In this document: positions 22,704 to 54,874 of the stretch, piece by piece | How the letters are laid out: every line of letters begins with the position of its first letter | Position numbering within the stretch: position 1 is the first letter of the stretch | NCBI RefSeq assembly: GCF_030694575.1 | Contig: NZ_JAUYUS010000068.1 | Coordinates: 1,924 to 65,923 of the forward strand | Direction of reading: 5' to 3' | From: Parvibaculum sp. | GTDB lineage: Bacteria > Pseudomonadota > Alphaproteobacteria > Parvibaculales > Parvibaculaceae | DNA: 64,000 bases | Notes under the pieces: generated by a model | Databases searched by the model: none | What the model was told of the DNA's origin: nothing | The model's input: only the letters and a program-made list of their open reading frames with translations | Program-made: the position numbers and the translations under genes

Positions 22704-23711
22704 CTAGCGCGCCACGGCGAGAGGAAGAGCAGTTTCGTCCGGATCGCGCACCAGCGCCATCGCCTCGCGGATCACTTCCGCGCCCGCGCCGGGACGGGGC
22801 GCGTTTTCCGACAAATGGCGGCGGAAGGCGCGCGCGCCGGGGCAGCCCTGGAAGAGGCCCAGTATATGCCGCGTCATCGCATGGAGATGCGTTCCATGCG
22901 CCAATTCTCTTTGCACATAGGGCATGAAGGCATCCAGCACGTCGTGGCGGCTGGGTATCTCGCGGCCGTCGCCGTAGAAGCGGCGGTCGGCTTCGGCGAG
23001 AATATAGGGATGCTGATAGGCGGCGCGGCCGAGCATCGCGCCATCGACATGGGCCAAGTGCGCTTCCGCCTCGTCGAGCGTTTCGATGCCGCCATTGATG
23101 ATGATTTCCATGTCCGGCATCGTCTGCTTGAGGCGGTAGACCAGCGGATAGTCGAGCGGGGGCACGTCGCGGTTTTCCTTCGGCGACAGGCCTTCGAGCC
23201 AGGCCTTGCGCGCATGGACGATGAGCGTTTCGCAGCCGGCCCCGCGCACGGCCCTGGCCATGGCGGGCAGCGCCGCCTCCGGCTCTTGTTCGTCGACGCC
23301 GATGCGGCATTTCACGGTGACTGGAATGGAGACCGCTTCCTTCATCGCGTCGACGCAGCGCCCGACAAGATCCGGCTCACGCATCAGACAGGCGCCAAAG
23401 CGGCCGGACTGCACGCGGTCGGACGGGCAGCCGACGTTGAGATTGATTTCATCGTAGCCGAAATCCGCCGCGATCCGGGCACTCTCGGCAAGATCCGCCG
23501 GCTCCGAACCGCCGAGCTGCACCGCCACAGGGTGTTCCGACGGATCGAAACCAAGCAGGCGCGCGCGATCCCCATGCAGCACGGCGCCCGTCGTCACCAT
23601 CTCCGTATAGAGGAGTGCCCGGCGCGTAATGAGGCGCAGGAAGAACCGGTCATGACGATCGGTCCAGTCCATCATGGGGGCGACGGAGATTTTATTTGTC
23701 AGCGTATTCAA
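22704..23711 (-). CDS. dusA: tRNA dihydrouridine(20/20a) synthase
   Basis: SVAPMMDWTDRHDRFF, LYTEMVTTGA, EINLNVGCPSDRVQSGRFGACLM, VHARKAWLEGLSPKENR; TTG start. Confidence 0.95.
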   Translation of the reverse strand: MNTLTNKISVAPMMDWTDRHDRFFLRLITRRALLYTEMVTTGAVLHGDRARLLGFDPSEHPVAVQLGGSEPADLAESARIAADFGYDEINLNVGCPSDRVQSGRFGACLMREPDLVGRCVDAMKEAVSIPVTVKCRIGVDEQEPEAALPAMARAVRGAGCETLIVHARKAWLEGLSPKENRDVPPLDYPLVYRLKQTMPDMEIIINGGIETLDEAEAHLAHVDGAMLGRAAYQHPYILAEADRRFYGDGREIPSRHDVLDAFMPYVQRELAHGTHLHAMTRHILGLFQGCPGARAFRRHLSENAPRPGAGAEVIREAMALVRDPDETALPLAVAR

Positions 23712-23797
23712 GAGTTTACCCGGACCTCGGGAGCATTCAAGCGGCCTAGTTTACGCTGTTGTACCCGCCGATGCGCCTGATGGCACATGAAAATTCC
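23657..23797. repeat. dusA 5' end plus upstream DNA, copy 1 (att site of island)
   Basis: Aligns by eye with 54733-54874; shared blocks TCCATCATGGG, GGAGATTTTATTTGTC, GTATTCAA, GGGAGC, GGCCTAGTTTACGCT, GAAAATTCC. Confidence 0.9.
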
Positions 23798-23806
23798 GCC
23801 TGCCTT

Positions 23807-24478
23807 TCAGGCATCGCAAGCATCGGCATCTTGTGTTGAGAACTTCAAATGCTCAGGGCCATAAATCCTCAGGAAATCATCGAGCGCGCCGTCAAGATAT
23901 CGATCTATTTCCTCCGGCGCGAGCCTCACGTCTTCACCACAAAGCACCTTCATCTGGTACTCACCGAGTACAAGCGCGATGAAAACGTCGGCCGCGCGCG
24001 CCGGATCGCCGATGTGGAGCAAGCCGCGCAGTGATTGCTTCTCAAGATAGGTCGAGACAATTTGTCGTCCCCTGGCGGGTCCTGCTTTGTAGAAGGTGGC
24101 GCCGACTTCGGGGAAATATGGCGCCTCAGCAATAACGAGGCGGAGCAGCGACATCTTCGGCTGCTGGATCACGCCGTCGAAAAACTGTCTGGCGACGACG
24201 TGAAGCGCCTCACGGAGCGGGCGCTCGTCGATATCTTCCGAAGCGAGAACCCCGAAGAAATTCTGACACTCTTCTTCGATCATCTCCTGAAAGAGACCAG
24301 CCTTCCCGCCAAAGAGGTCATAGAGCGTTGCAAGCGATCCGCCCGATACGCCCACAATGTCGTTGAGACTGGTAGCGCCATATCCTTGCTGCAGAAAGAC
24401 ATCACGTGCGGCATCGAGAATCGCCTGTCGTCTTTTCTCGCGGCGAGTCGGTTCCTTGTGCCCCGGCCCCTGTCTCAT
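23807..24478 (-). CDS. TetR/AcrR family transcriptional regulator
   Basis: RRQAILDAARDVFLQQGYGATSLNDIV..SLATLYDLFGGKAGLF; last gene of the RND operon, 4-bp overlap with the OMF gene. Confidence 0.92.
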   Translation of the reverse strand: MRQGPGHKEPTRREKRRQAILDAARDVFLQQGYGATSLNDIVGVSGGSLATLYDLFGGKAGLFQEMIEEECQNFFGVLASEDIDERPLREALHVVARQFFDGVIQQPKMSLLRLVIAEAPYFPEVGATFYKAGPARGRQIVSTYLEKQSLRGLLHIGDPARAADVFIALVLGEYQMKVLCGEDVRLAPEEIDRYLDGALDDFLRIYGPEHLKFSTQDADACDA

Positions 24479-25923
24479 CGTTCTCCCCCCCCATTTTCAG
24501 CGGCGCTTTGTTCGAAGCCGCCCCCACCCAGAACCTTGTACAGAGTGACTGTATTGCTCACTTGCGCAAGCTGGGTGCGAATAAGCTCCTGCTCCGCTGC
24601 GTAAAGCGAGCGTTGCGCATCGAGCAAAGTGAGATAGCTGTCGATCCCGCTGCGATATCGGCGCTCCGCGAGCGCGTAGCTCTCCGCTGTCGCTGTCACC
24701 AGCGCACGTTGCGCGTCCAGTTGTCCACCGTAGGTGCCCTGCCCGGCCAGAGCATCCACCACTTCGCGGAAGGCCGTCTGAATACTCTTTTCGTAGCGCG
24801 CGATATTGATGTCCTTCTGGACCTCCGCGACTTCGAGGTTGGCGATGTTCCGCCCGCCTTCAAAAATCGGAATGCTGATCTGGGGCATGAAACTCCATGC
24901 GCCGGAGCCGGGCTCAAACAGGCCGGAAAGCGAGCTGCTGGCCGTGCCGCCTGCAGCCGTCAAGGTGATCCTGGGAAAGAAGGCGGCCCGCGCCGCGCCG
25001 ATATTCGCGTTGGCGCCCCGCAGAGAATGCTCAGCCTGCCTGATGTCGGGGCGGTTCGCGAGCAGGTCCGAGGGTAGTCCTGTCGGCACGTCCGCGACGA
25101 AGCGGTCGATGTCCTGCGCGTCGTCCAGCGTCGCATCGTCGACGGGCGCGCCGACAAGCAGCGTCAAGGCGTTGCGGTCCTGTGCGACCTGACGGATGAA
25201 GGCGAAGCGGTTCACCCGTGCCGTCTCGACAGCGGTCTGTGCCTGTGCGAGATCAAGTTTCGACGACATGCCTCGTTCATAGGTCATCTTTACGAGATCG
25301 TAGGAGCGCTCCTGCGCCGCCAGCGTTTCCTCGGTGAGCTGCAACAGGCGTTGGTCCGCCCTGAGCGTCAGCCAGGCATTGGCAACTTCGGCGATCAACG
25401 CGATCTGCGCGGCGCGGCGCGCTTCGTCCGTGGAAAAATATTCCCGAAGAGCCTGCTCGTTGAGGCTACGCACCCGGCCAAAGAGATCCAGCTCATAAGC
25501 TGCGACATTCGCCTGCACGCTGTAGCTCGTTCCCGTGCTCGCTTGTCCTGTGCCCGAAAGATCGCCCGGCACCCGCTCACGCGCCATCGTACCGTCGCCG
25601 CTGATGCCCGGCAGCAAATCCGCGCGCTGCACTCGGTATAATGCGCGCGCCTCTTCCACATTGAGCACCGCCTCACGCAGATCGCGATTGTTTTCCAGCG
25701 CCTGCGCGATCAGCTTTTGCATCGCGTCCGACAAAAAGAAGTCCCGCCAGCCGAGAGCAGCGAGATCGACATCGCCCTTCACGGAAATATTCACTTCGCT
25801 GTAGGCCGCGCCGGACGGCCACCTGGCCGGCAGAGGCGCATTGGGCCGTTCATAGTCCGGCGCCAATGTGCAGGCGCTGAGCAGAGGCAACGACAGGACG
25901 ATCAGGGGAAGAAACTTGTTCAT
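24475..25923 (-). CDS. RND efflux outer membrane lipoprotein (OprM/NodT family)
   Basis: Lipobox LLSAC; NNRDLR; [12 protein letters not shown]; [13 protein letters not shown]. Confidence 0.93.
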
Positions 25924-28900
25924 CGATCTGCTTCCGTTTCCGGCAGGGGCGTCGCTGTTGGTCGCTTCTGCAAGAAGCGCTGCACCACGACGAAGAAAAG
26001 CGGCACGAAGAAGATGGCGAGAACGGTCGCCGAGATCATGCCGCCCATGACGCCGATGCCGATGGCATTCTGGCTGCCCGATCCGGGGCCGGAGGCGATC
26101 GCCAACGGCATAACGCCGAGTGTGAATGCGAGCGACGTCATGATGATCGGCCGCAGACGCAATCGGGCCGCGTGCATCGTCGCCTCAATGAGGCTCTCAC
26201 CGCCCTGATAGAGATCTTTTGCGAACTCGACGATCAGAATGGCGTTTTTCGCAGCAAGGCCGATCGTAACGAGCAGGCCCACCTGGAAATAGACGTCGTT
26301 GGACAGTCCAGTCATGGTGGCCGCAAGCACGGCGCCGAGAACGCCGAGTGGAACGACGAGCATCACCGAGATCGGGATCGACCAGCTTTCATAAAGCGCG
26401 GCAAGACAGAGGAAAACGAACAGGAGCGAAAGCGCATAAAGAGCCGGCGCTTGCGCACCCGCCTGCCGTTCCTCATAAGACAATCCTGTCCACTCATAGC
26501 CAACGCCTTCCGGCAGCTGATCCATCAGTTCTTCCATTGCGACCATGGCGTCGCCCGAACTCACGCCCGGCGCAGCGGAGCCCTGTATCTGGCGCGAGGA
26601 TGATCCGTTGAAGCGCTCGAGCCGCGGCGAACCGTATGTCCAGTGCGTGGTCGCAAACGCGGAAAAAGGCACCATTTCACCGTTCGCATTGCGTACATGG
26701 AGCTTATAGACGTCCTCCGGCAGCATACGGAACTTCGCATCTGCCTGAAGATAGACTTTCTTGACGCGCCCCTGGTCGATGAAATCGTTGATATAGCTGG
26801 ATCCCCAAGCTGCCGACAGCGTGCTGTTGACGTCGGACAACGCGAGGCCAAGCGCCGCTGCCTTCTCCTGGTCCACATCGACGCGGAACTCCGGCATATC
26901 GTCCAGTCCGTTCGGCCGCACACCAACGAGTTTCGGATTTTGCGCAGCAAGTCCGAGAAGCTGGTTGCGCGCTTGCATAAGCTTATCGTGACCGATCCCA
27001 GCACGATCGATGAGCTGCATGTCGAAGCCCGAAGCCGTCCCGAGTTCCGTGATCGATGGTGGAATAATGGCGAAGGCCATGGCGTCCTGCATGGTGCTGA
27101 AAAAACCCATGGCGCGTTGCGCAACGCTGAAGGCGCTTGTCTCGTCCGTTCCGCGCTCGTCGAATGGCTTCAAGTTGATGAAAGCCATTGCCGAATTCTG
27201 GCCCGCGCCGGCGAAATTGAACCCCACGACCGAAAACAGGCCCTGCACGGAATCCTTCTCCTGCTCCATGAAATAATTTTCCACGAGCTTCACGGATTCC
27301 CGTGTGCGCTCTGCAGACGCGCCCGCCGGCGTCGTAATCAAAGTCATCATGAAGCCCTGATCCTCGTCCGGCAGGAAGGACGCCGGGAGACGGAGAAAGA
27401 GAGCACCGAGGATGACGACAATGACGGCGTAGATGGCCATATAGCGCACCGGCCCGGCGAGAAAGCGGCGCACGCCCGATTCGTATGAACGTCCGCCGCG
27501 GTCAAACATGCGGTTGAACCAGCCGAAGAAACCTCGTTTCTCCTCACCGTGGTTTGTCGTCGGCTTCAGGATCGTGGCACAGAGTGCGGGCGTCAGCACC
27601 AGTGCGACAATCACCGACAGCACCATGGCCGACACGATTGTCAGCGAGAACTGGCGATAGATCGCGCCGGTCGATCCAGCGAAGAACGCCATCGGAATAA
27701 GGACCGCACTGAGTACGAGACCAATGCCGATCAACGCGCCTGTAATCTGGCTCATGGACTTTCGGGTCGCCTCGCGTGGCGATAAGCCCTCCTCGTTCAT
27801 GACACGTTCGACGTTTTCCACCACTACGATCGCGTCGTCGACGAGGAGACCGATCGCCAGCACCATGCCGAACATGGTGAGCGTGTTGATCGTAAAGCCG
27901 AATGCGGCGAGAATTCCGAACGTACCGAGAAGAACGACAGGGACGGCGACGGCGGGAATGAATGTCGCACGGACGTTCTGCAGGAACAGATACATCACAA
28001 GAATGACAAGCACGATCGCTTCGGCAAGCGTCTTGATCACCTCGTTGATCGAGAGCCGGACGAAGGGAGTTGTATCGTACGGGATGACTGACTTCAGACC
28101 TTCGGGAAAGAAGGGTTCGAGATCGGCAAGTTTCGCGCGAACCGCTTCCGCCGTGTCGAGTGCATTCGCTCCCGTTGCCAGCCGGATGGCAATGCCGGAG
28201 GCCGGATCGCCGTTATAGCGTCCGATCGTTTGATAGCTCTCGGAACCAAGCTCGACACGCGCGACATCCTTGAGGCGCACCTGCGATCCATCCTCGTTGA
28301 CGCGGAGCAGAATGCTCTCGAACTGGGCCGGTGTTTCAAGGCGCGTCTGTGCCGTCACTGTGGCGTTGAGCTGCTGGCCTGCCACCGCCGGGCGAGCGCC
28401 GATCTGTCCTGCCGACACTTCCGCATTCTGTGCACTTATCGCGGTGGAAATATCCGATACCGCTACTCCGTAGCTCTGCAGTTTTTGCGGATCGATCCAG
28501 ATGCGCATGGCATGCTGAGGCCCGAAAAGCTGAATCTCGCCTACGCCGTTTACGCGGCTTAATGGATCCTGGATATGCGATGCGACGTAGTCAGCGATTT
28601 CGGTTTCGTTTATCCGGCCGTCCGTCGAAATGAACGCGATAACCATGAGGAAGTTTCTGGCTGATTTCGCGACCGTCACACCCTGCTGCTGCACTTCCTG
28701 CGGCAAGAGGGGCAGAGCCGCTTGCAGCTTGTTCTGCACCTGGACCTGGGCAATATCCGGATCGGCTTCCGGCTCGAACGTAAGCGTGACCGTACCGGTG
28801 CCCGATGAGTCGCTGGTCGAGGACATGTAGCGGAGGTAGTCGAGGCCGCTCATCTTTTGTTCGATGACCTGCGTCACGGTGTTTTCGACCGTTCGCGCGG

Positions 28901-29057
28901 AGGCCCCCGGATAGGTGCCGGTGACGGTCACCGAGGGGGGCGCGATAGGCGGATACTGCTCGATCGGCAGCTGCATGATCGACAGCACGCCGGCCAGCAT
29001 GATGACAATGGCAATGACCCAGGCGAAGACGGGACGGTCGATAAAGAAATTCGCCAT
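25920..29057 (-). CDS. RND efflux permease (AcrB/MexB family, HAE1)
   Basis: [14 protein letters not shown]; [18 protein letters not shown]; [15 protein letters not shown]; RLRPIIMTS. Confidence 0.96.
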
Positions 29058-29107
29058 GTTGAACTAACGCTCCGTTGAACCTGAATCGCGTCTACGCTCG
29101 CCGAGCC

Positions 29108-30292
29108 TCAGGGCTTCTGGCCCTGCTGCTGTGCTGCGCCCGCGGGCTGTTGTGTGCCCTCGCCTGCTTCCACCGCCTTGACCTCGACACCCGGCTGCAA
29201 TTTCTGCACACCCGCGATCACGACACGGTCGCCGGATTCGAGCCCCTCGCTTATGAGCCATTTGTCTCCGACGGCACGAAGCGCAGTGACGGTTTTCTGC
29301 GTCACCTTCTCGTCGTCGCCCACAAGCCAGACCTGCGCTTTTCCATCCGGTGTACGGGATACGCCCTGCTGCGGAACGAGGATCGCATTCTCGAGTACGC
29401 CCTGCTGCACGATGGCCCTTACGAACAGGCCAGGCAGAAGTTCGGCATTGGGATTGGGGAAGATTGCGCGCAACTGAACCATGCTGGTATCCGGTGCGAC
29501 TGTGACGCCCGAGAACTGAAGCTCGCCCGTGCCGCCATACTGCTCTTCGCTGCCTTCGAGCTTCAACGTTACGGGCGCCTTGCTGCCCTTCGCCCCCTGG
29601 ATCCTGCCCTCGGCCATTGCGCGCTTCATCCGGAGCAGGTCGGCCGCGGATTGCGTGAGATCGACATAGATGGGGTCGAGCTGCGTCACGGTGGCAAGTT
29701 CCGTCGCCTGGTTGGCTGTGACCAGCGCTCCTTCCGTCACCGAAGAGCGGCTGATGATGCCCGAAATCGGCGCAATGACTTTTGTGTAGGCGAGATTTGT
29801 TTCCGCGGTATCGAGGTTCGCCTTCGCCGTAGCGACATCCGCAGAACTCTGGGCGAGCGTAGCCATGACGTCGTCATAGTCCTGCTTGCTCACCGCGTTC
29901 ACAGCGACAAGTTCCTTGTAGCGGGCGGCGCGGGCCCTCTCGGCCTTCTCATTCGCTGCCGCCTTCGCTAACGCGGCCTTCGCCGCATCGAAATTTGCCT
30001 GATAAAGCGCGGGATCGATCTGGTAGAGCTGCTGCCCTTCCTCGACCTTTGTGCCCTCTTCAAAGAGACGCTTCTGGACGATGCCGGTCACCTGAGGCCG
30101 GATCTCCGCCACGCGGAAGGCCGATGTGCGCCCGGAAAGCTCCGTGATCACTTCAAGCTGCTCGGGCTTCACTGTTACTACACTGACTTCCGTCGGTGGG
30201 GGACCGGCCTGCTCTTCACCGCTGTCGCATCCGCTCAGGACGGCCGCCGCCACAAGGAAAGCCGCGAGCCTTACAATCACTCCGCCACGCAT
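29108..30292 (-). CDS. RND efflux periplasmic adaptor (AcrA/MexA family)
   Basis: Lipobox VLSGC; RVAEIRPQVTGIV; VTQLDPIYVDL; AGGAG RBS before ATG 30292. Confidence 0.93.
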   Translation of the reverse strand: MRGGVIVRLAAFLVAAAVLSGCDSGEEQAGPPPTEVSVVTVKPEQLEVITELSGRTSAFRVAEIRPQVTGIVQKRLFEEGTKVEEGQQLYQIDPALYQANFDAAKAALAKAAANEKAERARAARYKELVAVNAVSKQDYDDVMATLAQSSADVATAKANLDTAETNLAYTKVIAPISGIISRSSVTEGALVTANQATELATVTQLDPIYVDLTQSAADLLRMKRAMAEGRIQGAKGSKAPVTLKLEGSEEQYGGTGELQFSGVTVAPDTSMVQLRAIFPNPNAELLPGLFVRAIVQQGVLENAILVPQQGVSRTPDGKAQVWLVGDDEKVTQKTVTALRAVGDKWLISEGLESGDRVVIAGVQKLQPGVEVKAVEAGEGTQQPAGAAQQQGQKP

Positions 30293-30396
30293 CTCGACTC
30301 CTGTCGGTATCCACGAAAGGGAACCGTCCCGGTGCGCAGAAAAGGGGGAGTGCGCGAGCATGGCGGGGGGATATGCCACGACCGAGACGACTATTC

Positions 30397-30428
30397 ATGT
30401 AATGTACGATACATTACATTTTTGTCAA
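30397..30428 (-). promoter_or_regulatory. RND operon promoter with perfect palindromic TetR-type operator
   Basis: ATGTAATGTA-CGA-TACATTACAT (30397-30419) overlapping TTGACA-N16-TACATT on the minus strand. Confidence 0.75.
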
Positions 30429-30844
30429 GAGGTAATGCTCGGGCTGCCAAGCCCCCGCGCGCCGGTCGCGGAAGGCTATGCAATAATAATGTGCATCGTT
30501 TCGCACGCGGGCGAGGTTCGCCACCTCACCTGAAGCTATTGATTCAGTGTGCGCCCGCTCGGATGAAAAACTTTGGGAGAACGTCCATGGAGGTATCGCG
30601 CTTTCCTCTTCTCTCCCAAACATTGAACCTCATGTCTCGCCGCTGAACCTCGATACCCTCCGTATAGAGACATACTTAACTTTCACCAACCGCAGAGATT
30701 CCGCGAAAAGGCTGCCAGGAAAAATTTGTCGCGGATGCCGTGAGCGGCCGTAGAAGTCAGCCCATCCTCCGCTGTGCAGCACACTTGAAGCTCCGAAGAC
30801 AAGTCGCCGGAGCCAAGTTTGAGCGCCACGCAGGCATCCCTCAA

Positions 30845-31273
30845 TCAATCGATATATTGCTCGTTGCCGACAAAGCCAATCTTCGTAACGCCGAGGCGCT
30901 GTGCCGCGGCCAAGACTTTTGCCACATGATCGTATTCGACCGTGCGGTCAGGACGGAGATGTATCTCCGGCTCGGGAACAGCGGTGGCTGCGGCGAAAAA
31001 CTTCTCTTCCAATGCCGAAATATCGCTCAGGCTTTCACCGTTCCAATACGCAACACCGTCCGCATCCACCGTGAGCTGAACGACCGACGGCTCCTGCGGC
31101 GGCGCTTCGAGCGTGACAGCCTGAGGCATATCGAGCTTGATCGCGTGAGTTTGCAGCGGGATCGTGATGATGAGCATGACGAGAAGCACGAGCATCACGT
31201 CGATCAATGGCGTGGTGTTGATCTCCATCATGGGATCGTCTTCGCTACCCTCGCTGCCAACGTTCATTGCCAT
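30845..31273 (-). CDS. exbD: ExbD/TolR biopolymer transporter
   Basis: EINTTPLIDVMLVLLVMLIIT. Confidence 0.93.
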   Translation of the reverse strand: MAMNVGSEGSEDDPMMEINTTPLIDVMLVLLVMLIITIPLQTHAIKLDMPQAVTLEAPPQEPSVVQLTVDADGVAYWNGESLSDISALEEKFFAAATAVPEPEIHLRPDRTVEYDHVAKVLAAAQRLGVTKIGFVGNEQYID

Positions 31274-31287
31274 GAGGCCATGTCCTT

Positions 31288-31713
31288 CTAGCTGCCTTGA
31301 ACCGGTTCGGTGATGAAACCCACTTTGTGAATCCCGGCCCGCTGGATATCGAGAATAAGTCTGCCCACGGACTCAAAGCGCGTCATCCGGTCGCCGCGAA
31401 CCTGAATTTCAGGTTGAGTATCTGCCTGCGCTGCCTCGATGAGTTTCTTCAGCATCTCCTCGCGGGTCTCCACACGAGACGCATTCCAGTAGTAATGCCC
31501 ATCAGCATCAACCGCGATGGTGATGTTCCTGGGTTCTGTCTGATTGATCTCGCTACTCGCCTTTGGCAACTCAACCGGAACAGTCTGGATCGCAACCGGA
31601 ATGGTGATCAGGAAGATGATCAGAAGCACCAGCATTACGTCGACAAGCGGCGTCGTGTTGATAGCCGACATCACTTCATCTTCATCGCCGTTGCTTGCTA
31701 CGTTCATTGCCAT
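31288..31713 (-). CDS. exbD: ExbD/TolR biopolymer transporter
   Basis: AINTTPLVDVMLVLLIIFLIT. Confidence 0.93.
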   Translation of the reverse strand: MAMNVASNGDEDEVMSAINTTPLVDVMLVLLIIFLITIPVAIQTVPVELPKASSEINQTEPRNITIAVDADGHYYWNASRVETREEMLKKLIEAAQADTQPEIQVRGDRMTRFESVGRLILDIQRAGIHKVGFITEPVQGS

Positions 31714-31752
31714 GATCGTGCCTCGGCTTGATTTCGTCTACCCGACATGAAC

Positions 31753-32637: not shown

Positions 32638-32686
32638 TGGGGTCCTTTACTCGTCTTCTGGAATGTCATCTAGGAAAGCATCAGCT

Positions 32687-33304: not shown

Positions 33305-33365
33305 TTGTCAGTCACTTTCACGCACCCGGTCCGCCACATGGATCGCGGACCGTTGGTTTTGTCCA

Positions 33366-33381
33366 TGCACAACAGGTGCCA
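33366..33381 (-). promoter_or_regulatory. Sigma54-like -24/-12 promoter upstream of tonB
   Basis: Minus strand TGGCAC-CTGTT-GTGCA (GG-N10-GC), intergenic, about 60 bp before the tonB ATG. Confidence 0.5.
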
Positions 33382-33388
33382 GTTCATC

Positions 33389-44106: not shown

Positions 44107-44179
44107 CGCCCTGATCCTGCGAAACGCTCACTGGAGCTCTTACCGAGGGCATGACGATCACGCCCTATCCCAAACGCTA

Positions 44180-44195
44180 AACAAAAGCCGTGCCA
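44180..44195 (-). promoter_or_regulatory. Sigma54-like promoter upstream of the second TauD gene
   Basis: Minus strand TGGCAC-GGCTT-TTGTT; the -12 element is imperfect. Confidence 0.4.
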
Positions 44196-44240
44196 AAGGC
44201 TTGTCTGTGTGCGCCCAAGCACTTGATCGCCGCTCATTCC

Positions 44241-44849: not shown

Positions 44850-45170
44850 GAGTCTCGCCTTCCTGTTCGACTGACATGTCCAGCACCCGCCGGACCGGCA
44901 CTGAGGCTAGGCTCAGGAGGTCCCGGGTTCTTGCCTCTTTGCGTTCGATTGCTTTTCCCACGTAGATACAAGTTCCTGCCAATGCCACTTTTGCAGGCGG
45001 TCCGTCGCCGGTTTTCTAGGCAATGCGGTCACCGACGCGAGGCCTGAACAACAGTTTGGTCGCTCAATCACAAGAGCTCTCGTCTCTGTCGGCCTAATAT
45101 CGATGCTGGAAACAGAGGCCCAAATTTTGCGTCGCTCCCTTTCGGGAGGCAGATGATTGAGCGGAGTGCG

Positions 45171-46358: not shown

Positions 46359-46386
46359 CGACGAAATCATCGAGGCAGGACCACCG

Positions 46387-47178
46387 ATGCGAAACGGAAA
46401 CGGCAGGCGCCAGCCTGCGATATTTTTCGGGCATGGCAGTCCCGGCAATGTGATGGAAGACAACTTCGTCACGCAGTGCTGGGAGAATCTCGGCCGCGAG
46501 ATTGGCAAGCCCAAAGGTATTATCTGCGTTTCCGCCCACTGGTATACACGTGGCATTCGGGTCACCGCCGCGCCAAATCCCGGCACAATCCATGATTTCG
46601 GCGGCTTTCCGAAGGCCATGTACGACCTTCGTTATCCCGCTCCCGGCAGTCCGGGGCTTGCCGGGGAGATTGCGCGCCGGCTTGCACCTGTCGATGTTCT
46701 TCTGGACGACGAAAGAGGCTTCGATCACGGCTCCTGGTGCGTGCTTGCCAAAGTCTACCCGCAGGCCGATGTCCCGATGGTTCAGATAAGCATGGATGCG
46801 ACCATGCTGCCGCACCAGCATTTCGCGCTCGGGACGACGCTGGGGCAGTTTCGCGACGAAGGCTGCCTGCTTATGGGCAGCGGAAACATCGTCCACAACC
46901 TGCCGGAGATGGACTGGCGGATGCGGGATGGCAGCTATAATTGGGCGGGCCGGTTTGGCGACTACATTCGCGAGAGCATCGTCGCAGATCGGCCAGACAG
47001 GTTGATCGACTATGCGTCGCAGGGACGCGACGCCTCGCTTTCCGTGCCGCATCCCGATCACTACCTGCCGCTGCTTTATGTGGTTGGCGCCCGGCGCGCG
47101 GACGATCCCGTCCGCTTCGAGACGCCGATGGTGGAATACGGCTCTCTCGACATGACAACCGTGGTCATCGGCGCCTGA
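46387..47178 (+). CDS. ygiD: 4,5-DOPA extradiol dioxygenase family (YgiD/LigB-like)
   Basis: FFGHGSP, SAHWYT, FDHGSW, GSGNIVHNL, PHPDHYLPL. Confidence 0.9.
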   Translation: MRNGNGRRQPAIFFGHGSPGNVMEDNFVTQCWENLGREIGKPKGIICVSAHWYTRGIRVTAAPNPGTIHDFGGFPKAMYDLRYPAPGSPGLAGEIARRLAPVDVLLDDERGFDHGSWCVLAKVYPQADVPMVQISMDATMLPHQHFALGTTLGQFRDEGCLLMGSGNIVHNLPEMDWRMRDGSYNWAGRFGDYIRESIVADRPDRLIDYASQGRDASLSVPHPDHYLPLLYVVGARRADDPVRFETPMVEYGSLDMTTVVIGA

Positions 47179-47399
47179 AGGACGAGCCCTGCGCCACCGG
47201 AGCAGGCATATGCTTCCTCACTCTGCCCGCTTGCGAGGCAATACCCTGTGCGATGGGTCGCCGGGCAACATCTTCTGCGCTCCAAAGCAAGATCGATCGC
47301 CTTGTACGTCGGACACTCGTCTCATCCGCTTTGAACATCGGCGTCCGCCGCAGTGTCATTGCCGCGGATGAAATGTTGTCTCAAGGCGCGAGGAGTTTC

Positions 47400-48479
47400 A
47401 TGGCGCATGCAGTAATCCCGGGATCGAAGGCCACAGCGCACGCACATCCCACCGCCCTCCACCTCCTCAGAGCAACGCCGGAGACCTGTCACTGGGGGTA
47501 TTTCGATCCGGCGCTGGCGCCGGTACTCACAGTGAAGAGTGGCGACCTCGTTCAAGTCGAGGCGGTTACCCATCATGCCGGCGATGCACCCGATATCATG
47601 ATGGATGACGCTGTCCGGCACATCTACAACACGATCCCCGAAGCCGATCGCAATCCCGGCGTCCATTTGATGACAGGGCCGATCTATGTCGAGGGCGCAA
47701 AGCCCGGCGATATGCTGGAGGTGCGTTATCTGCGGATGACGCCGCGCTTCGACTACGGGTCCAACCTCGCCGCAAACTGGGGGCATCTCCACAAGGAGTT
47801 TGACGAGAAGGAACGCGTGACCATCTACCGGCTCGATCGGGCGACCCATCAAGCCGAGGCCTTCTATGCCTATGATTATCCCGGCAAGTACGAAACACCG
47901 GGCAAGATCACCAACTGCCCCGAATGCGACCGGCAGACAGCTTTGAACGGCGTCCGTGTTCCCGTCAGGCCGCATCTCGGTACGGCGGGGGTTGCACCGG
48001 ATGTGGAGGGTCGCGTCAGCACCATTCCGCCGGGGGCACATGGCGGCAACATCGACAACTGGCGCATCGGCGCCGGTGCGACGATGTTCTATCCGGTGGC
48101 GGTGGACGGCGCGCTCTTTTCTGTTGGCGACCCGCATATCTCGCAAGGCGACGGCGAGATCAGCGGCACGGCAATCGAAGCCTCGCTCGATGTGCTTTTC
48201 CAAATCGTTTTGCGCAAGGACTTCGAGTTCCCTTCGCCGCTTCTCGAAACGCCCAAATACTGGATCGTTCACGGCTTCGATGAAGACCTCGACAATGCCA
48301 TGCGCAATGCCTCTCTGGACATGCTGAAGTTCCTTCACGAAGAACGTAATCTCAGCAAGAACGACGCCTATTCGCTCATGAGCGTTTCAGCGGACTTCAC
48401 GGTCACACAAGTCGTCGATGGGCGTCAGGGCGTGCATGTCCGCATGCCGCGCAGCATCTTCCCGACCGAAAAGAAATAG
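47400..48479 (+). CDS. Acetamidase/formamidase (FmdA/AmdA) family protein
   Basis: HWGYFD, HLMTGPIYVEGAKPGD, HGGNIDNW, GDPHISQGDGEISGTAIE; AGGAG RBS. Confidence 0.92.
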   Translation: MAHAVIPGSKATAHAHPTALHLLRATPETCHWGYFDPALAPVLTVKSGDLVQVEAVTHHAGDAPDIMMDDAVRHIYNTIPEADRNPGVHLMTGPIYVEGAKPGDMLEVRYLRMTPRFDYGSNLAANWGHLHKEFDEKERVTIYRLDRATHQAEAFYAYDYPGKYETPGKITNCPECDRQTALNGVRVPVRPHLGTAGVAPDVEGRVSTIPPGAHGGNIDNWRIGAGATMFYPVAVDGALFSVGDPHISQGDGEISGTAIEASLDVLFQIVLRKDFEFPSPLLETPKYWIVHGFDEDLDNAMRNASLDMLKFLHEERNLSKNDAYSLMSVSADFTVTQVVDGRQGVHVRMPRSIFPTEKK

Positions 48480-48492
48480 GGGCCCCTGCGGT

Positions 48493-48508
48493 GGGCACAC
48501 TTCTTGCG
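48493..48508 (+). promoter_or_regulatory. Sigma54-like promoter upstream of the AraC-amidase fusion
   Basis: GGGCAC-ACTTC-TTGCG (GG-N10-GC). Confidence 0.5.
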
Positions 48509-48596
48509 ACGTCGTAATCGGCGACGCAGCCGACGGCGCAAACCCCTGATTTCCGGAGCGTGAAAAAAGCGGAACCGTTTGAGCTGCACAAATTTA

Positions 48597-48639
48597 CGGC
48601 ACCGGGAGGTCTGTTTTTGCGGCAGACCTTCGGGTGCCG
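48597..48639 (+). other. Long stem-loop in the leader of the fusion gene
   Basis: CGGCACCGGGAGGTCTG-N9-CAGACCTTCGGGTGCCG, 17-bp stem with one mismatch and one G-U pair. Confidence 0.6.
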
Positions 48640-48662
48640 GGTAACGAGTTGTGTGCGATCGA

Positions 48663-51065
48663 ATGGATGCCTGGCGATTTTCAACCGAATCCTATCCCAA
48701 GGCCAACCGCTACGAGGCGTGGCAGGAAGCCCTTGAGCGCCTGGCATTGAAGCCAACGGGCCATGCAACCGATGACGGCGCCTATGGAATGCTGTCCGCT
48801 GTCGTTTCGCAATCCGGCATCAGCTTCACGCGCCTCATATCGACCCCGCAAGATATCAGCGCCATTCACGAGCTCAACAAGGAAGCAGGCAAAGACGGCA
48901 TCTGGCTCACATCTCTGCTCGAAGGTCATCTGACTTTTCACGATGGCGGCAACGACATCAAGGCAACGGCCGGCGATATTGTATATGGCGCTGTCGGTTC
49001 ACACACCACGCTGACGCTTGAAACCAATTGCCGCGTCATCATCGTTTATATCCCACGCTTTGCATTCCAGCCTCGTCTCATGACGCCACTGCCGACCAAG
49101 GTCATCCACCTGTCGGGCCGCGCCGGCATCGGGCATGTGCTGGCCGGCTTTCTGTCCTCGGTCGCCGAAGCGCTCGAGGACCTCAGCATCGACCAGTTGA
49201 GGCCCATCGAGATGGCGTTGCCGGAATTTCTGATGGCGGGCATTTTCCGTCAGGCAGACACGCGGGCGCTGGGCGGCGCAGCGGGTGTTCGCGCGGCGCT
49301 TCTGCATCGGGTTTGCCAGACCATCGAGGCGCAACTTGGCGATCCGGATCTTTCGCTCGCGAACATCGCCGAAGCCCACGGTATCTCTCCACGCTATGTG
49401 CAAAAACTTTTTGAGTCCGTCGGCCAGAGCTTTATCCGTTACATCCGCTACAGACGCCTTGAGCGCTGCCGCTATGATCTGGAAAGCCCGATACATGGCC
49501 AGCTGTCCATTTCCGACATCTGCTTTCGTTGGGGCTTCAACGATGCCGCGCATTTCAGTCGCGCGTTCCGCGACCAATATGGCGTCTCGCCCCGGGAATA
49601 CCGCCGGGCGGCACCGTCCAACGCGCAACAGAGTCATCCATGGATCACCAATCGCGGACGGCCGGACGACCGCCTCGGCGCACCGCGCGACGACCGTTCG
49701 ATTTCCTGGTCCGACTTGCCGGCGGATGAGGCGCCGTTGCCCGAAGACGGGGATCTGGCAGTCGTCACACCCGCACTTCCCTCGGAAACGCTGCCAATTT
49801 CGGTGCCGCTGTCCGAAGATGGCGCGCGCCATCACTATCTGCCGGTCACCGCCAATACCGTGCATTGGGGCTATTTCAGCCGTTTCCTTCCGCCTGTGCT
49901 TGAGATGAACTCGGGCGACTTTGTCACCATCGAAACGCTCACGCAGCACGCCTATGACGATTACGAGCGCATGATCGAGAACGATCCGGGTGCCGAAAGC
50001 GTTTTCCACTGGACCAAGGACGGCAAGAATGTCGATCGGCGAGGCGCCGGTCCGATGGATGCGTCCACCTATGGTCGCGGACCGGGCGAGGGCTTTGGCG
50101 TGCATATCTGCACCGGGCCCATCTCCATTCACGATGCGAAGCCCGGCGACATCGTCGAACTGCGGATCCTCGACATTCATCCGCGCCCCAGTGCCAGCGC
50201 GCGCTTCGAGGGGCGGCATTTCGGCAGCAACGCAGCCGCATGGTGGGGCTACCACTACAACGAACTGCTCACGCCACCAGCACCGCGCGAGGTCATCACG
50301 ATCTACGAGATCGAGAAGCGACACGGCAACGATGTCGCACGCGCGGTCTACAACTATCGCTGGACGCCACAGACAGATCCGTTCGGTGTGGTGCATGAGC
50401 TGATCGACTACCCGGGCGTACCGGTCGATCACACGACGATCGAGAAAAACTTCGACGTGCTGAAGAGCGTCGAGATTCCGTTGCGGGCTCATTTCGGGGT
50501 GGTCGCTCTGGCCCCCGACCACTGGGGCATTGTGGACTCGGTGCCTCCAGCCTATTTCGGCGGCAACATCGACAATTGGCGCCTGGGCGCGGGCTCCTGC
50601 ATCTTCCTGCCTGTCTCTGTCCCCGGCGGCTTGCTGTCGGTCGGCGATCCGCACGCGTCACAAGGCGACTCGGAGCTTTGCGGCACAGCGATCGAATGCT
50701 CTCTCACCGGCATTTTCCAGGTCATCCTGCACAAGAAACGGGAACTGCCCGGCAAGCTCATCGATCTCGACTACCCGCTGATCGAGACGCCGGACGAATG
50801 GGTCATCACCGGCTTTTCCCATCCGAACTATCTGAAGGAACTCGGCAAGAACGCCCAGACCGAAGTCTACAAGCAGGCATCCGTCGATATGGCAATGCGC
50901 GACGCGTTCCGGAAAACGCGCCGCTTTCTCATGACGTCCAAAGGCCTGTCGGAGGATGAGGCCATCTCCCTCATGTCCGTTGGTGTCGATTTTGGCATCA
51001 CGCAGGTGGTGGATGGAAACTGGGGCGTGCACGCCGTCATTCGTAAAGCCATGTTTCTCGATTGA
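48663..51065 (+). CDS. AraC-family regulator fused to a C-terminal acetamidase/formamidase domain
   Basis: N-terminal WRFST..YEAWQEAL FeaR-like domain; HTH GISPRYVQKLF..SISDICFRWGFNDAAHFSRAFRDQYGVSPREYR; then VHWGYFS..GGNIDNW..GDPHASQGDSELCGTAIE in one frame. Confidence 0.9.
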   Translation: MDAWRFSTESYPKANRYEAWQEALERLALKPTGHATDDGAYGMLSAVVSQSGISFTRLISTPQDISAIHELNKEAGKDGIWLTSLLEGHLTFHDGGNDIKATAGDIVYGAVGSHTTLTLETNCRVIIVYIPRFAFQPRLMTPLPTKVIHLSGRAGIGHVLAGFLSSVAEALEDLSIDQLRPIEMALPEFLMAGIFRQADTRALGGAAGVRAALLHRVCQTIEAQLGDPDLSLANIAEAHGISPRYVQKLFESVGQSFIRYIRYRRLERCRYDLESPIHGQLSISDICFRWGFNDAAHFSRAFRDQYGVSPREYRRAAPSNAQQSHPWITNRGRPDDRLGAPRDDRSISWSDLPADEAPLPEDGDLAVVTPALPSETLPISVPLSEDGARHHYLPVTANTVHWGYFSRFLPPVLEMNSGDFVTIETLTQHAYDDYERMIENDPGAESVFHWTKDGKNVDRRGAGPMDASTYGRGPGEGFGVHICTGPISIHDAKPGDIVELRILDIHPRPSASARFEGRHFGSNAAAWWGYHYNELLTPPAPREVITIYEIEKRHGNDVARAVYNYRWTPQTDPFGVVHELIDYPGVPVDHTTIEKNFDVLKSVEIPLRAHFGVVALAPDHWGIVDSVPPAYFGGNIDNWRLGAGSCIFLPVSVPGGLLSVGDPHASQGDSELCGTAIECSLTGIFQVILHKKRELPGKLIDLDYPLIETPDEWVITGFSHPNYLKELGKNAQTEVYKQASVDMAMRDAFRKTRRFLMTSKGLSEDEAISLMSVGVDFGITQVVDGNWGVHAVIRKAMFLD

Positions 51066-51957
51066 GACTGGAAGCAAGCGCCGCGAGCGTTCCTCTGTCG
51101 AGACTGGGGCCGGGCGTGGCGCACACGGCGGCGGCCACACGCGCGGCAAATATCATTGCATTCCCGAAAGGCGCACCTTCCATGTCGGCGAACAGAAAGC
51201 CGGCATGAAACGCATCGCCGGCACCTGTCGTGTCGACCACGACGCAGGGTTGCGCCGGCACAAATATGGGAACATCTCCCTTGAGTGCACCGACAGCTCC
51301 GTCGCCACCCAATGTGACAACGTGCCGACGCCCGCCGAGTTCCGCGAGCGCTGTCAACATGTCGCCATGTATGCCGGAACCCGCAATCTCGGCTGCCGTT
51401 GCCCGCGGAACGATGGCGGTATCGACGAGCGCGAGCAAAGATCTCGTGCCATCCGTCGCGATTTCGGCATCCGTCAGCGTCGGGATCCCACGCCGCGCAG
51501 CTTCCCGTGCAATCGAGAGCGAGGCTTCTTCCTCGTGCCCGTCAAAATAGACATACGAAGCGGCCGTCCACACTGCTTCGGAAATTTTCCCGTTAAAACG
51601 GGGATAGGCTTCCGGTGCCGTTTCCACGATGCAGCGCTCACCTGTCACCTTGTCCACAAGTATGTAGGCGCACGGATTTGCCATACCGCGCGCATGCTGC
51701 ACGCCTATACCGTCAATTCCGCGCTCGGCGAGAAACGCCATGACATGGGTTCCGTTGACATCGTCACCGACGACGCCGGCGTAAAAGACCGCACAGCCGA
51801 GCCCAGCAAGGGTCACGGCCGCATTTACACATTGGCCGCCGATCAGCACCGCCGGGTCGCCTGTACGCTGCTTGCTGTCAGGTCCTACACGTCCGAGATC
51901 GACATTGAAAACAAAGTCGACGCTGTTGCGCCCGACGCAAAGAACTCCGCCTCCCAT
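51037..51957 (-). CDS. PfkB family carbohydrate kinase
   Basis: GGQCVNAAVTLAGLG..GVVGDD; VVTLGGDG; VDTTGAGDAFHAGF. Confidence 0.92.
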   Translation of the reverse strand: MGGGVLCVGRNSVDFVFNVDLGRVGPDSKQRTGDPAVLIGGQCVNAAVTLAGLGCAVFYAGVVGDDVNGTHVMAFLAERGIDGIGVQHARGMANPCAYILVDKVTGERCIVETAPEAYPRFNGKISEAVWTAASYVYFDGHEEEASLSIAREAARRGIPTLTDAEIATDGTRSLLALVDTAIVPRATAAEIAGSGIHGDMLTALAELGGRRHVVTLGGDGAVGALKGDVPIFVPAQPCVVVDTTGAGDAFHAGFLFADMEGAPFGNAMIFAARVAAAVCATPGPSLDRGTLAALASSLNRETWLYE

Positions 51958-52174
51958 ATCCCCACTCCCGACCAGATGCACTCTTCCGATCCTAGACCGG
52001 CACCGGCAGCGCTTCGACGACAAACCCGCTCAATAAGTTGGATCTGTACATCGGAATGCAGCCCTGTGCTCACTCCATCCGGGCAAGCCAAGTTTCCGTG
52101 CGTGCAGGCACCAGAACCGGACGAGCGGATCGCCCAATATGAAACCATCCGCTTCCTGTAGCCAAAGGTTCGCA

Positions 52175-54043
52175 ATGACATCCGAAAACCCGACGCGGCG
52201 AGACGCGCTCAAGGGACTTGCCGCCGGTGGCGGCGCCGCGCTGGTCGCCAGGCCCGGACGCTCGGAGCCCTCCGCGGCCGGGGTCAGATTTCTTCACGGT
52301 GTTGCCAGCGGCGACCCTGAAATGACGGCCGTCATCATCTGGACACGCGTCACGGCATCGGGCGACGTCGCCCTCCGCTGGCAGATGGCGCATGATCTGG
52401 ATTTTCTCGATATCGCTGCCGAAGGCGACGCAACGGCACAAGGTGCAAATGACCACACCGTGAAAATCGACGCGCGCGGACTCGAATCTGGCCAAAAATA
52501 TTTCTATCGCTTTGTAGCAGGTGACGTAGCATCCCCGACCGGGCGCACGAGAACACTGCCGGGCGACGACGCAGTCAAAGTACGACTCGGAGTCGTTTCC
52601 TGTTCCCACTACAGCTTCGGCTTCTACAATGTCTACAAGGAGCTTTCGAAGGACGCCGACCTCGACGCGATCGTGCATCTCGGCGACTACATCTACGAGT
52701 CCGGCGTAGACGGTTATGGCGGCGATGTCGGCGCGGAGCTTGATCGCCTGCACGAGCCGCCGCACGAAATCATGACCCTCGACGATTACCGGAAGCGCTT
52801 TTCGCAATACCGCCTCGATCCCGATCTTCAGGCCGCCCATGCTGCCGCCCCGTTCATCGCAATCTGGGACGATCACGAGACGGCGAACAATTCATGGAGC
52901 GGCGGTGCACAGAATCACAAACCGGAGACCCACGGGGCGTGGTCCCTGCGCAGGGATGCCGCGCTGCGTGCCTATTTCGAATGGATGCCGATCCGCGACC
53001 CGAAGCCCGGCGAAGCATTCCACCGTCTTCATCGCACCTATCAGCTCGGCAACCTCGCGAGCCTCCACGTCATCGAAACGCGATTGACGGCGCGAAGCGA
53101 AGAGGTGAGCTACGACGCGCAGATGACCTACTTCGAAATCAGCTACGATGTCTCCGATCCCGAGGCCGCGAAGCCGCTTTCAAACCCCGACGCCGCAGCG
53201 CTCGACGTCGATCTGATCGAGAAGCTCAAAACACCTTTTTCGGAAGCCGATGGCAGCCCGGTGCTCGACTATGCGCTGGCGCGCGCGTGGGCGCTTGAGG
53301 GGTTGCCCGAAGGCTATGTCTACCGGCCGGACACCGATCGCTTCCGCCGCGAAGTTCTTGCCGATCCGTCACGCGAGATCCTCGGCCCGTCGCAGCTTGC
53401 GTGGCTTGAAGATGGCCTCAAGACATCACGCGCCAGCGGAACACCCTGGCAGATACTTGGCAACCAGGTCATCATGGCGCGGATGGACGCACCCGACTAC
53501 ACGAGGGCGTTTCCACCGGATGTCATCGAACCTGCGGTGCGCGACAATCCTTATGCCAAACGCTGGATTGATCGCACGGCCATGCGCCTGCCGATCAATC
53601 CGGATGCATGGGACGGGTATCCAGCGGCCCGTCAACGCGTCTACGACGCCGTCCGCGCGGCAGAAGCAAATCTGGTTGTTCTCACCGGCGACACCCATCA
53701 CTTCTGGGCAAACGATCTGCGGGAAACGCCCGGCGGACGCCGCATCGGCGTGGAATTTGCCACCAGCAGCGTCAGCTCAAAAGGCGGCTACGATTATATC
53801 GCCGCCGATCCGCGCGTCTACGACATCGCCGAGGAGACACTCGTGCGCGAGGTGCCGGAGATCGTTTATTGCGAGACGCGGCATCGCGGCTTTATCGTCC
53901 TGGAAATCGAGGCAGATGCAGTGCATGCGGACTACATGGCGGTATCAACCGTCAGGTCACGGGAATACACGGCGACACGCCTCAGGCGCTTTCGGGTTCA
54001 ACGCGAAAGCGAAGGGCTGCTCTCCGAAATTCAGGTCGTCTGA
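52175..54043 (+). CDS. phoD: Alkaline phosphatase D family protein with Tat signal
   Basis: TRRDALKG twin-Arg; FLHGVASGDP; VHLGDYIYE; WDDHETANN; DAWDGY; LTGDTH. Confidence 0.92.
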   Translation: MTSENPTRRDALKGLAAGGGAALVARPGRSEPSAAGVRFLHGVASGDPEMTAVIIWTRVTASGDVALRWQMAHDLDFLDIAAEGDATAQGANDHTVKIDARGLESGQKYFYRFVAGDVASPTGRTRTLPGDDAVKVRLGVVSCSHYSFGFYNVYKELSKDADLDAIVHLGDYIYESGVDGYGGDVGAELDRLHEPPHEIMTLDDYRKRFSQYRLDPDLQAAHAAAPFIAIWDDHETANNSWSGGAQNHKPETHGAWSLRRDAALRAYFEWMPIRDPKPGEAFHRLHRTYQLGNLASLHVIETRLTARSEEVSYDAQMTYFEISYDVSDPEAAKPLSNPDAAALDVDLIEKLKTPFSEADGSPVLDYALARAWALEGLPEGYVYRPDTDRFRREVLADPSREILGPSQLAWLEDGLKTSRASGTPWQILGNQVIMARMDAPDYTRAFPPDVIEPAVRDNPYAKRWIDRTAMRLPINPDAWDGYPAARQRVYDAVRAAEANLVVLTGDTHHFWANDLRETPGGRRIGVEFATSSVSSKGGYDYIAADPRVYDIAEETLVREVPEIVYCETRHRGFIVLEIEADAVHADYMAVSTVRSREYTATRLRRFRVQRESEGLLSEIQVV

Positions 54044-54057
54044 AAAGTGCGGTCACA

Positions 54058-54549
54058 TTACTCCCGGCTGAAATGCACGGGGATTTCCGGCTCCGGCCCG
54101 GCTTTGACCCAGAGCACGATCTCGTTTCCCCACGGATCGCGGAACGCGTGGTTGAAGCCGTTGAATTCTTTCCAGTAGTGATCGCGCCACAGAATGGTCG
54201 CTCCGTGTTTCTCCGCATCGGCCAGAATGCGCGCTTCGCTGTCGTCGGAGCTCACAAGAATCCATATCCGCGCCTTGCGGCCGTCGCGACTGATCTCTCG
54301 AGGACCGACGCCCGCGGGATCGGGATGCGGCCGTGCGTTCGACGCGTCGTGGATGCCGATATGGAAATTGCCGATATGGCTCTGCGATCCATCCGTGTTC
54401 AGCGCATTCTGACCGGGCACCATCCGGTGATAGACGCCGAAAGGACGAGGATCGTTTTCCCAGCCGAAAACCTCTGCATAGAATTGGGCGCAGGCAGCGG
54501 GATCGTCGGATGTCAGATCGACAAAAATGAGCGTATTCGGATAGGGCAA
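54058..54549 (-). CDS. VOC (glyoxalase-like) family protein
   Basis: FVDLTSDDPAACAQFYAEVFGW..AEKHGATIL..AFRDPWGNEIVL. Confidence 0.85.
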   Translation of the reverse strand: MPYPNTLIFVDLTSDDPAACAQFYAEVFGWENDPRPFGVYHRMVPGQNALNTDGSQSHIGNFHIGIHDASNARPHPDPAGVGPREISRDGRKARIWILVSSDDSEARILADAEKHGATILWRDHYWKEFNGFNHAFRDPWGNEIVLWVKAGPEPEIPVHFSRE

Positions 54550-54732
54550 GGCGTGCTCCCTTTTCTGGGTGCGTGATCAATCGTTGGCCATCGCATCGGC
54601 CAAGCATCGTCCGACCGGCGGCTCGCGTCTTGTCCCTCCGCGCTTGTTTACTGGATCGCGATGTGCCTCAGATGCCAACCCGTCGCGCGCGCTGCACGTG
54701 CGCAGTTCTTTGAATAGCTGAGCCCAAACGCA

Positions 54733-54874
54733 GATCGCTCAAATCCATCATGGGCGCGATGGAGATTTTATTTGTCTGTGTATTCAACAGGTTACCTGCA
54801 GCTTGGGAGCGTTCAAAGAGGCCTAGTTTACGCTCTTCTATCGCCTAATGCGCCGAGAGCCACAGGAAAATTCC
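54733..54874. repeat. dusA 5' end plus upstream DNA, copy 2 (displaced att site)
   Basis: Minus strand from TTG at 54787 reads MNTQTNKISIAPMMD, then diverges (LSDLRLG...); homology to 23657-23797 continues about 90 bp upstream. Confidence 0.9.

Follow-up and report, generated by a model that had tools for sequence, protein, structure and literature searches.

The 5' region of dusA, the gene for tRNA-dihydrouridine synthase A, is the target of genomic islands and prophages that carry a dusA-associated integrase (DAI). The integrase is the only universal feature of these elements, which have direct repeats of 21-28 bp (Farrugia et al. 2015, PMC4482086). In Vibrio, the IntdusA elements require RdfN (PMC8409611). 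Herein, we analysed a stretch of 64,000 nt from Parvibaculum sp. (NCBI RefSeq assembly GCF_030694575.1, contig NZ_JAUYUS010000068.1, positions 1,924 to 65,923), called the window, in which the 5' end of dusA occurs twice with some 31 kb between the copies. A preliminary description, made from the letters of the window, regarded these 31 kb as an island integrated at dusA. We found that the duplication is real, but comparative synteny reverses which DNA looks newly arrived: it appears to be the nitrate-assimilation (nas) cluster beyond the second copy and not the 31 kb.

The cis-mobilizable elements (CIMEs) are a further system of relevance. They consist of cargo that is flanked by attachment (att) sites and lacks genes for integration and transfer, as known from the ICESt elements of Streptococcus thermophilus. 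They originate within integrase-bearing elements or remain next to them in tandem arrays, and tandem accretion occurs at the att sites of integrative and conjugative or integrative and mobilizable elements. In the following, positions refer to the window unless a contig is named. C21 is the contig of the window in our contig numbering, G000 is its genome, and other G-numbers are further Parvibaculum species.

The duplicated 5' end of dusA

The window contains an intact dusA (22704-23711, minus strand; TTG start), whose 335-aa product matches Pfam Dus PF01207 over its full length (E = 3e-83) and shares 75-90% aa identity with its congeners. Its 5' end belongs to a direct repeat of ~143 bp and ~80% identity, located at 23657-23797 (copy 1) and 54733-54874 (copy 2). 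The repeat search returned two segments, 23657-23740/54733-54816 (84 nt, 83%) and 23739-23797/54816-54874 (59 nt, 76%), with a spacing of 31,076-31,077 bp and a single 1-bp indel between the copies. The MAFFT alignment of the two copies agreed with the repeat search, and blastn of copy 1 against copy 2 gave 79.6% identity over 142 nt (E = 6e-30). The duplication of ~140 bp and the distance of 31,076 bp given in the preliminary description were thus confirmed, and its judgement by eye of roughly three-quarters identity came close to the value obtained by alignment.

The repeat spans dusA codons 1-15 and ~90 bp upstream. The common core that had been proposed, TCCATCATGGG, was located in both copies, at 23668-23678 and 54744-54754, inside the codons for APMMD. 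Copy 1 (minus strand) consists of the working dusA 5' end of 15 codons and the upstream arm of ~90 bp. It translates as (TTG)NTLTNKISVAPMMDWTDRH..., and its homology to the copies of other species extends to ~23833. Copy 2 (minus strand) consists of a displaced dusA 5' end of 14 dusA codons and the upstream arm. It starts with TTG at 54787-54785 and reads (TTG)NTQTNKISIAPMMD-LSDLRLG..., leaving dusA as had been noticed before and reaching a stop after 39 codons (relic open reading frame (ORF), 54665-54787). Beyond the core of copy 2, the dusA-sense strand continues into TTTGAGCGATCTGCGTTTGGGCTCAGCTATTCAAAG (54700-54743, minus strand), which matches the consensus of the displaced junctions in the genus and is an island-end (P'-type) arm.

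Searching G000 with a 14-copy profile (nhmmer) revealed these two full copies only, and a third dusA copy beyond the nas cluster was not found on C21. Copy 1 was nearest to the copies beside native flanks in G007 (82%) and G042 (80%), and copy 2 shared 72.5% with the native-flank copy of G042. Neither copy yielded a sigma-70 consensus promoter, and Rfam and tRNA scans of the arms gave no match. A terminator-like hairpin with a T-run is present at 23797-23813 (minus strand), downstream of a TetR gene, where it overlaps the outer conserved part of the upstream arm. The motif GGAATTTTC occurs in most copies, including those with unrelated upstream genes. Since it is retained beside unrelated genes, it may be a protein-binding site (IHF or arm-type) rather than a terminator.

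We compared both junctions with metagenomic data. Logan contigs from four independent metagenome runs cross the copy-2 junction (53600-55786 or more) without any alternative joint, and those of three runs show no difference at all. For the dusA/copy 1/TetR junction, 99-100% of the sampled 31-mers were present in three of those four runs. Joints of an excision circle or a restored attB were absent from the Logan contigs of eight runs, which drop rare variants.

dusA islands and DAI integrases in Parvibaculum

Displaced dusA 5' copies were found in 9 of the 49 Parvibaculum species. Six congeners besides G000 hold dusA and a second 5' copy at a distance of 7.6-20 kb, and in G013 the extra copy is adjacent to dusA. 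In alignments of 14, then 22 copies, every displaced copy left dusA at the same core and continued with the motif TTTGAGCGA-N5-CTTT-N2-TCTCAA-N3-CTTAG...CGTG, the island-end arm. A 26-nt junction pattern was present in 10 of the 49 genomes, whereas the reversed control gave zero. Two of these matches were dusA itself and eight were true displaced junctions (G000, G002, G006, G007, G018, G022, G042 and G048).

Two of the species hold an integrase at dusA. In the closed genome of G042, the gene for a 380-aa tyrosine recombinase lies 130 bp from the dusA start and divergent from it, and G048 has a 98%-identical fragment of this gene in the same place. The G042 integrase shares 39-41% identity, over >85% of its length, with the integrases of Pseudomonas phage H66 and Escherichia phage mEp460, which are listed as DAI-family members (Farrugia et al. 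2015, PMC4482086). At 24 loci with relatives of the G042 integrase, from Alphaproteobacteria, Xanthomonadales and Pseudomonas, dusA is immediately and divergently upstream. The integrase identity of 98% between G042 and G048, together with 93% in a Sphingobium metagenome-assembled genome, argues for recent transfer of DAI elements between species and between genera. No integrase was found near the islands of G002, G006, G007, G018 and G022.

Tandem arrays were observed in both integrase-bearing species. In G042 (C1:1,096,600-1,155,700), an integrase-bearing island of ~41 kb beside dusA is followed by an integrase-less one of 16.7 kb, and the 26-nt pattern located two junctions upstream of dusA. 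In G048 (contigs C79 and C37), three successive displaced junctions are ~9-10 kb apart, the pattern giving three on one contig.

Given that sister species hold the same junctions and a DAI integrase at dusA, the interpretation of the duplicated dusA 5' end as the att footprint of dusA-specific integrative elements is well founded. The link to DAI elements drawn in the preliminary description therefore stands at the level of the family, and in G002 the genes that flank copy 2 on its right in G000 adjoin dusA.

Some further copies were found outside this pattern. At C1:366,422-366,556 of G042, ~790 kb from dusA, there is another displaced 5' copy of dusA that carries an island-end arm and may reflect a rearrangement or the junction of a secondary site. 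In G013, a 100-bp duplicate of dusA codons ~7-40 (C9:79,582-79,682; L008:4583-4683) lies ~50 bp upstream of the real dusA start and could be the minimal scar of an excised or deleted island. G000 itself carries, away from dusA, a ~19.7-kb copy of the whole G022 dusA island, which includes an RND pump and other genes (C40:2249-22475; 93% nt identity). The dusA-side flanks of G000 and G022 are only 81-83% identical, well below this value. At its right end the island on C40 has a degenerate core, TCGCTCAAATCCtTCATaGG (C40:22456-22475), followed by a ~200-aa tyrosine recombinase pseudogene with one in-frame TAG. No att arm was found at its left end.

The 31-kb block and the nitrate-assimilation cluster

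The DNA between the copies, from TetR to a gene named hyp184 (23807-54607), is referred to as block C. Its content was determined by Pfam and NCBIfam scans of 31 candidate ORFs (at least 80 aa) chosen in the interval and its flanks. Block C encodes regulatory and transport proteins (TetR, an RND efflux pump (OEP/AcrB/MFP), two ExbD, ExbB, TonB, MFS and a TonB-dependent receptor) and a series of enzymes (flavin reductase, M20-like hydrolase, isochorismatase, luciferase-like monooxygenase, two TauD dioxygenases, SDR, FMN reductase, Rieske oxygenase and LigB). The remainder comprises a formamidase, an AraC-formamidase fusion, PhoD and hyp184 (184 aa, no family assigned). The scans revealed no recombinase, transposase, relaxase or phage gene in block C. 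A six-frame search for PF00589 had no match in the window, and its four matches in the genome were all on other contigs. A DAI homologue was not found in G000 by tblastn with the G042 integrase, the best match of which (E = 0.014) was a Xer-like gene. No RdfN or PrtN-like factor was among the scanned ORFs of 80 aa or more, and no RdfN profile was run on smaller ones. The gap between dusA and TetR measures ~95 bp and is wholly taken up by the arm; because the TetR stop is only ~10 bp from the end of copy 1, there is no room for an integrase remnant.

Two features within block C deserve mention. The tandem ExbD paralogues (31157-31715) form a 119-nt direct repeat with 72% identity and 440-bp spacing, an ordinary gene duplication. 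At 48651-51065, a single 804-aa ORF joins an AraC-type regulator (ligand domain and HTH) to a formamidase/acetamidase domain. The fusion is kept at 77-87% in six congeners (G042, G006, G045, G044, G013 and G015), and G014 has a partial match of 80% that is cut by the end of the locus. Its conservation in congeners indicates that it is not an assembly error.

Block C is collinear, at orthologue-level identity, in seven species (G042, G045, G006, G044, G013, G014 and G015). By tblastn, the genes from ExbD to PhoD-hyp184 are collinear and have the same orientation relative to dusA in G042 (C1:1,057,087-1,080,220), G006, G044 and G045, with 62-93% aa identity per gene, and the RND-TetR module is also present in G045. 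Going outward from dusA in G042 and G006, one passes other islands and the outermost displaced dusA copy before reaching the block, which is on the native-flank side. In G045, c13-c15 and ~23 kb separate it from dusA, and in G014 and G015 the distance amounts to hundreds of kb. Using nhmmer, we found no att-like sequence beside hyp184 in any other genome. The same was true of TetR, for which G045 alone among the relatives provided a homologue. The GC content, suggested as a check in the preliminary description, did show a dip, with ~0.59 inside the interval and ~0.64 outside. In the four relatives measured (G042, G006, G044 and G045), however, block C has a GC content of 0.59-0.61. Since the block is equally low there, the dip is a property of block C and was rejected as a sign of recent acquisition. 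Thus the claim that the repeats bound an acquired island was not upheld, because the locus lacks an integrase and the block is collinear in seven species, where its position is either outside the dusA repeats or distant from dusA. Block C is probably ordinary chromosome that the genus has long carried.

The right-hand end of the block points to a different insertion. Some 130 bp past hyp184, G042 and G044 have a flavin monooxygenase (FMO) gene and then two further genes. The G000 homologues of these three genes (84-90% aa) are located at C21:70114-73708, with FMO at C21:70114-71616, just past the nas cluster (region B). Homology to the hyp184-FMO intergenic region of G042 and G044 stops at ~54656, and the breakpoints are at ~54656-54710 and ~C21:70100. 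The preliminary description expected a comparison of flanks to expose an empty site for the 31 kb. What is missing between the contiguous hyp184 and FMO of G042 and G044 is instead copy 2 with region B. A homology between the G044 FMO terminator and 54685-54703 was not significant. In the three FMO-flank genes, G000 and G042 are sisters relative to G044 (87-90% vs. 73-85%). Therefore, one insertion in G000 is simpler than two deletions. In G013 and G014, neither FMO nor region B adjoins hyp184, so these species provide no outgroup polarity for the junction.

Compared with G042 and G044, the G000-specific DNA amounts to ~13.5 kb (window ~54,660 to C21 ~70,100). It contains the island-end arm, the core, the dusA 5' relic, the upstream arm, a fragment of an MMPL gene, region B and a LuxR fragment. 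The MMPL fragment (54900-55480, minus strand) was recognized by tblastx and six-frame reading as a truncated, frameshifted N-terminal piece (~190 aa) of an RND/MMPL-type transporter gene, of which a full-length paralogue is on contig C107. Its pieces had no Pfam or NCBIfam match. We had considered the 750 bp beside copy 2 as an integrase remnant, which was rejected since they are this pseudogene. Region B (55620-64000, minus strand, and on to C21:69862, ~4 kb past the window) is a nitrate/nitrite assimilation cluster, as assigned by Pfam. Its genes encode a CobA-type uroporphyrin-III methyltransferase (55620-56393), a NasA-like molybdopterin nitrate reductase (56390-59053), NirD (59074-59418), NirB (59415-61868) and the ATPase of an Nrt-type ABC transporter (61871-62872). 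They are followed by a further ORF (62677-63915) and, beyond the window, by genes for an NrtA-like binding protein, an ANTAR response regulator and a MobA-like protein.

Region B has an att-bracketed counterpart in G002. The order there is c15-c14-c13, displaced dusA copy, island-end arm, MobA...nas...CobA, upstream arm, dusA. The c13 flank is common to the displaced copy of G022 and to the single intact dusA of G045, and the three upstream arms cluster. Given this common flank and these arms, the G002 locus is a regular product of integration whose island is region B. No integrase was found near this nas island. In G000, copy 2 borders on region B at its CobA end, which is the position of the proximal arm in G002, and is followed by the island-end arm, not by dusA. 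In G016, region B stands in a context without att sequence.

Origin of the second copy and its implications

Based on this comparison, we consider it moderately probable that copy 2 came to an ectopic site together with the nas cluster, as an att module. In copy 1, we most likely see the resident 5' end of dusA, still at its normal position. The direction and the mechanism of the insertion are inferred as follows. The ~143-bp module would be the attachment site of dusA-specific integrative elements that circulate in Parvibaculum, with the core in the APMMD codons and with the dusA start and an upstream arm of ~90-120 bp on one side. Copy 2 would be a complete, unsplit attP-like module (upstream arm, dusA 5' codons, core and island-end arm) at the end of the ~13.5-kb segment. 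The nas island would have been excised, or copied, with a joined attP-like junction, and would then have landed between hyp184 and FMO. As copy 2 is unsplit, this insertion presumably did not cross over at the core, and a non-core event, illegitimate or homologous, would be involved. As an outcome, block C would happen to lie between two directly repeated att modules. Such a pair resembles the substrates of intramolecular attP x attB deletion by lambda-type integrases, in that an attP-like module and the dusA attB would be direct repeats in one molecule. It differs from them in the lack of an integrase in G000 and in the putative nature of the arm-site function.

Since the genome has no cognate integrase, the locus is presumably immobile at present. 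If a DAI integrase were provided in trans, it could recombine the cores, so that a 31-kb circle would be lost and a G002-like junction between the nas cluster and dusA would be left. If the sites are attB and attP, as the ectopic arrival of the nas cluster implies, an integrase alone would suffice. If block C were the island, the sites would be attL and attR and a recombination directionality factor would be needed.

Several observations weigh against the ectopic arrival of the nas cluster. First, the order dusA-core-arm...island-end arm-core-arm, with the island-end arm on the side of block C, is exactly the product expected of site-specific integration of the 31 kb. Second, an attP-like junction that was kept unsplit implies that the core was not used, and there is no known mechanism for such an ectopic insertion. 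Third, no second junction was found at the far end of region B. In addition, the presence of the G022 island in G000 at 93% nt identity indicates that integrase-less dusA islands do move between species. The ~140-nt arms carry a weak phylogenetic signal on which copy is native, and the att-arm tree resolves only the c13-flank group. Finally, the concatenated tree of block C places G000 basal to G045, G042, G006 and G044, in conflict with the FMO-flank genes. The genes of this block unite G042 with G006 and G044 (90%) and leave G000 in a basal position (83-85%). This conflict suggests that block C was exchanged in some lineage, and the block thus appears to have a history of recombination or transfer that the ectopic arrival of the nas cluster does not account for.

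The explanation that draws most on these observations is that block C is an integrase-less, CIME-type dusA island, a decayed island or array member, which was integrated into a chromosome with region B before dusA. We regard it as unlikely, albeit a serious competitor. A DAI would have acted in cis, being lost later, or in trans; copy 1 would have been supplied by the island and copy 2 would be the earlier 5' end, now displaced. Either region B and the junction would have been lost from the other species, or homologous recombination with a divergent Parvibaculum lineage would have brought the whole arrangement into G000. The att architecture fits this scenario, with the island-end consensus on the inner side of copy 2, and region B does adjoin dusA in G002. 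Integrase-less, repeat-bracketed islands exist in G002, G006, G007, G018 and G022, and the arrays of G042 and G048 pair integrase-bearing with integrase-less islands. The discordance between block C of G000 and its flanks and the 20-kb G022 island on C40 are also in line with it. However, block C is genus-wide and collinear, lacks att features elsewhere and has the same GC content in the four measured relatives. The adjacency of hyp184 and FMO in both G042 and G044 would need independent deletions that end at the same arm boundary. Furthermore, region B has no junction at its far end, and the short dusA-TetR gap holds no integrase remnant.

It is very improbable that the duplication is unrelated to site-specific recombination, being a segmental duplication or a regulatory element or small gene upstream of several loci. 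The displaced copies of all eight junction genomes break at the same core into the shared island-end motif, and DAI-type integrases are present at dusA in G042 and G048. There is no Rfam family match and G000 contains just two full copies, although the ~90 bp conserved upstream of the start in both copies are far longer than the 21-28-bp repeats of DAI islands and no sigma-70 consensus promoter was called. A chimeric joint of contig C21 at the repeat is scarcely credible, even for a draft genome of 135 contigs from an organism that occurs in metagenomes, because copies of just 80% identity would not collapse in assembly, the contigs of four runs span the copy-2 side (three without differences), and the sampled k-mers of three runs fully cover the dusA/copy 1/TetR stretch.

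The locus therefore shares only part of the features of the known systems. Like the DAI elements, it involves the conserved 5' region of dusA (VAPMMDW codons), with imperfect direct repeats at both ends, the core of which is in the APMMD codons, and a displaced 5' end at the far junction. As in DAI elements, dusA is intact and its start and upstream region are next to the core, and the same genus holds a true DAI, the 380-aa tyrosine recombinase divergent from dusA. Unlike the DAI elements, G000 has no integrase beside dusA, a feature present in G042 and G048. The copies are similar over ~143 bp at 80%, with arm homology to ~175 bp between species, vs. 21-28 bp in DAI islands. The DNA between the repeats is neither strain-specific nor compositionally atypical compared with its orthologues, as laterally acquired DNA would be, and no evidence of excision was found in the Logan contigs. 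With the CIMEs the locus shares two att modules that flank DNA without mobility genes, and G042 and G048 show tandem arrays of the kind in which CIMEs are found. In contrast to CIMEs, the bracketed DNA of G000 appears to be resident, genus-wide chromosome and not decayed element cargo.

DAI islands are already well described; the absent integrase, the longer repeat and the apparently resident nature of the bracketed DNA set this locus apart. Two well-defined att-type repeats are not sufficient to mark out an island, and at this locus the repeats alone misassign it. In Parvibaculum, dusA is an insertion hot spot, as evidenced by the displaced copies in 9 of 49 species, the tandem arrays and several integrase-less islands. 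A more speculative and rather doubtful extension is that DAI-type att modules with long arms (~140-250 bp), detached from their integrases, bracket ordinary metabolic blocks, such as the nas cluster of G002 and the 31-kb TonB/oxygenase block, and that an incoming DAI may move these between species, a trans-acting, dusA-centred shuffling of the chromosome. Should mobilisation of such blocks in trans occur, nitrate-assimilation clusters and clusters for xenobiotic or organosulfur catabolism could spread in this way among environmental Alphaproteobacteria.

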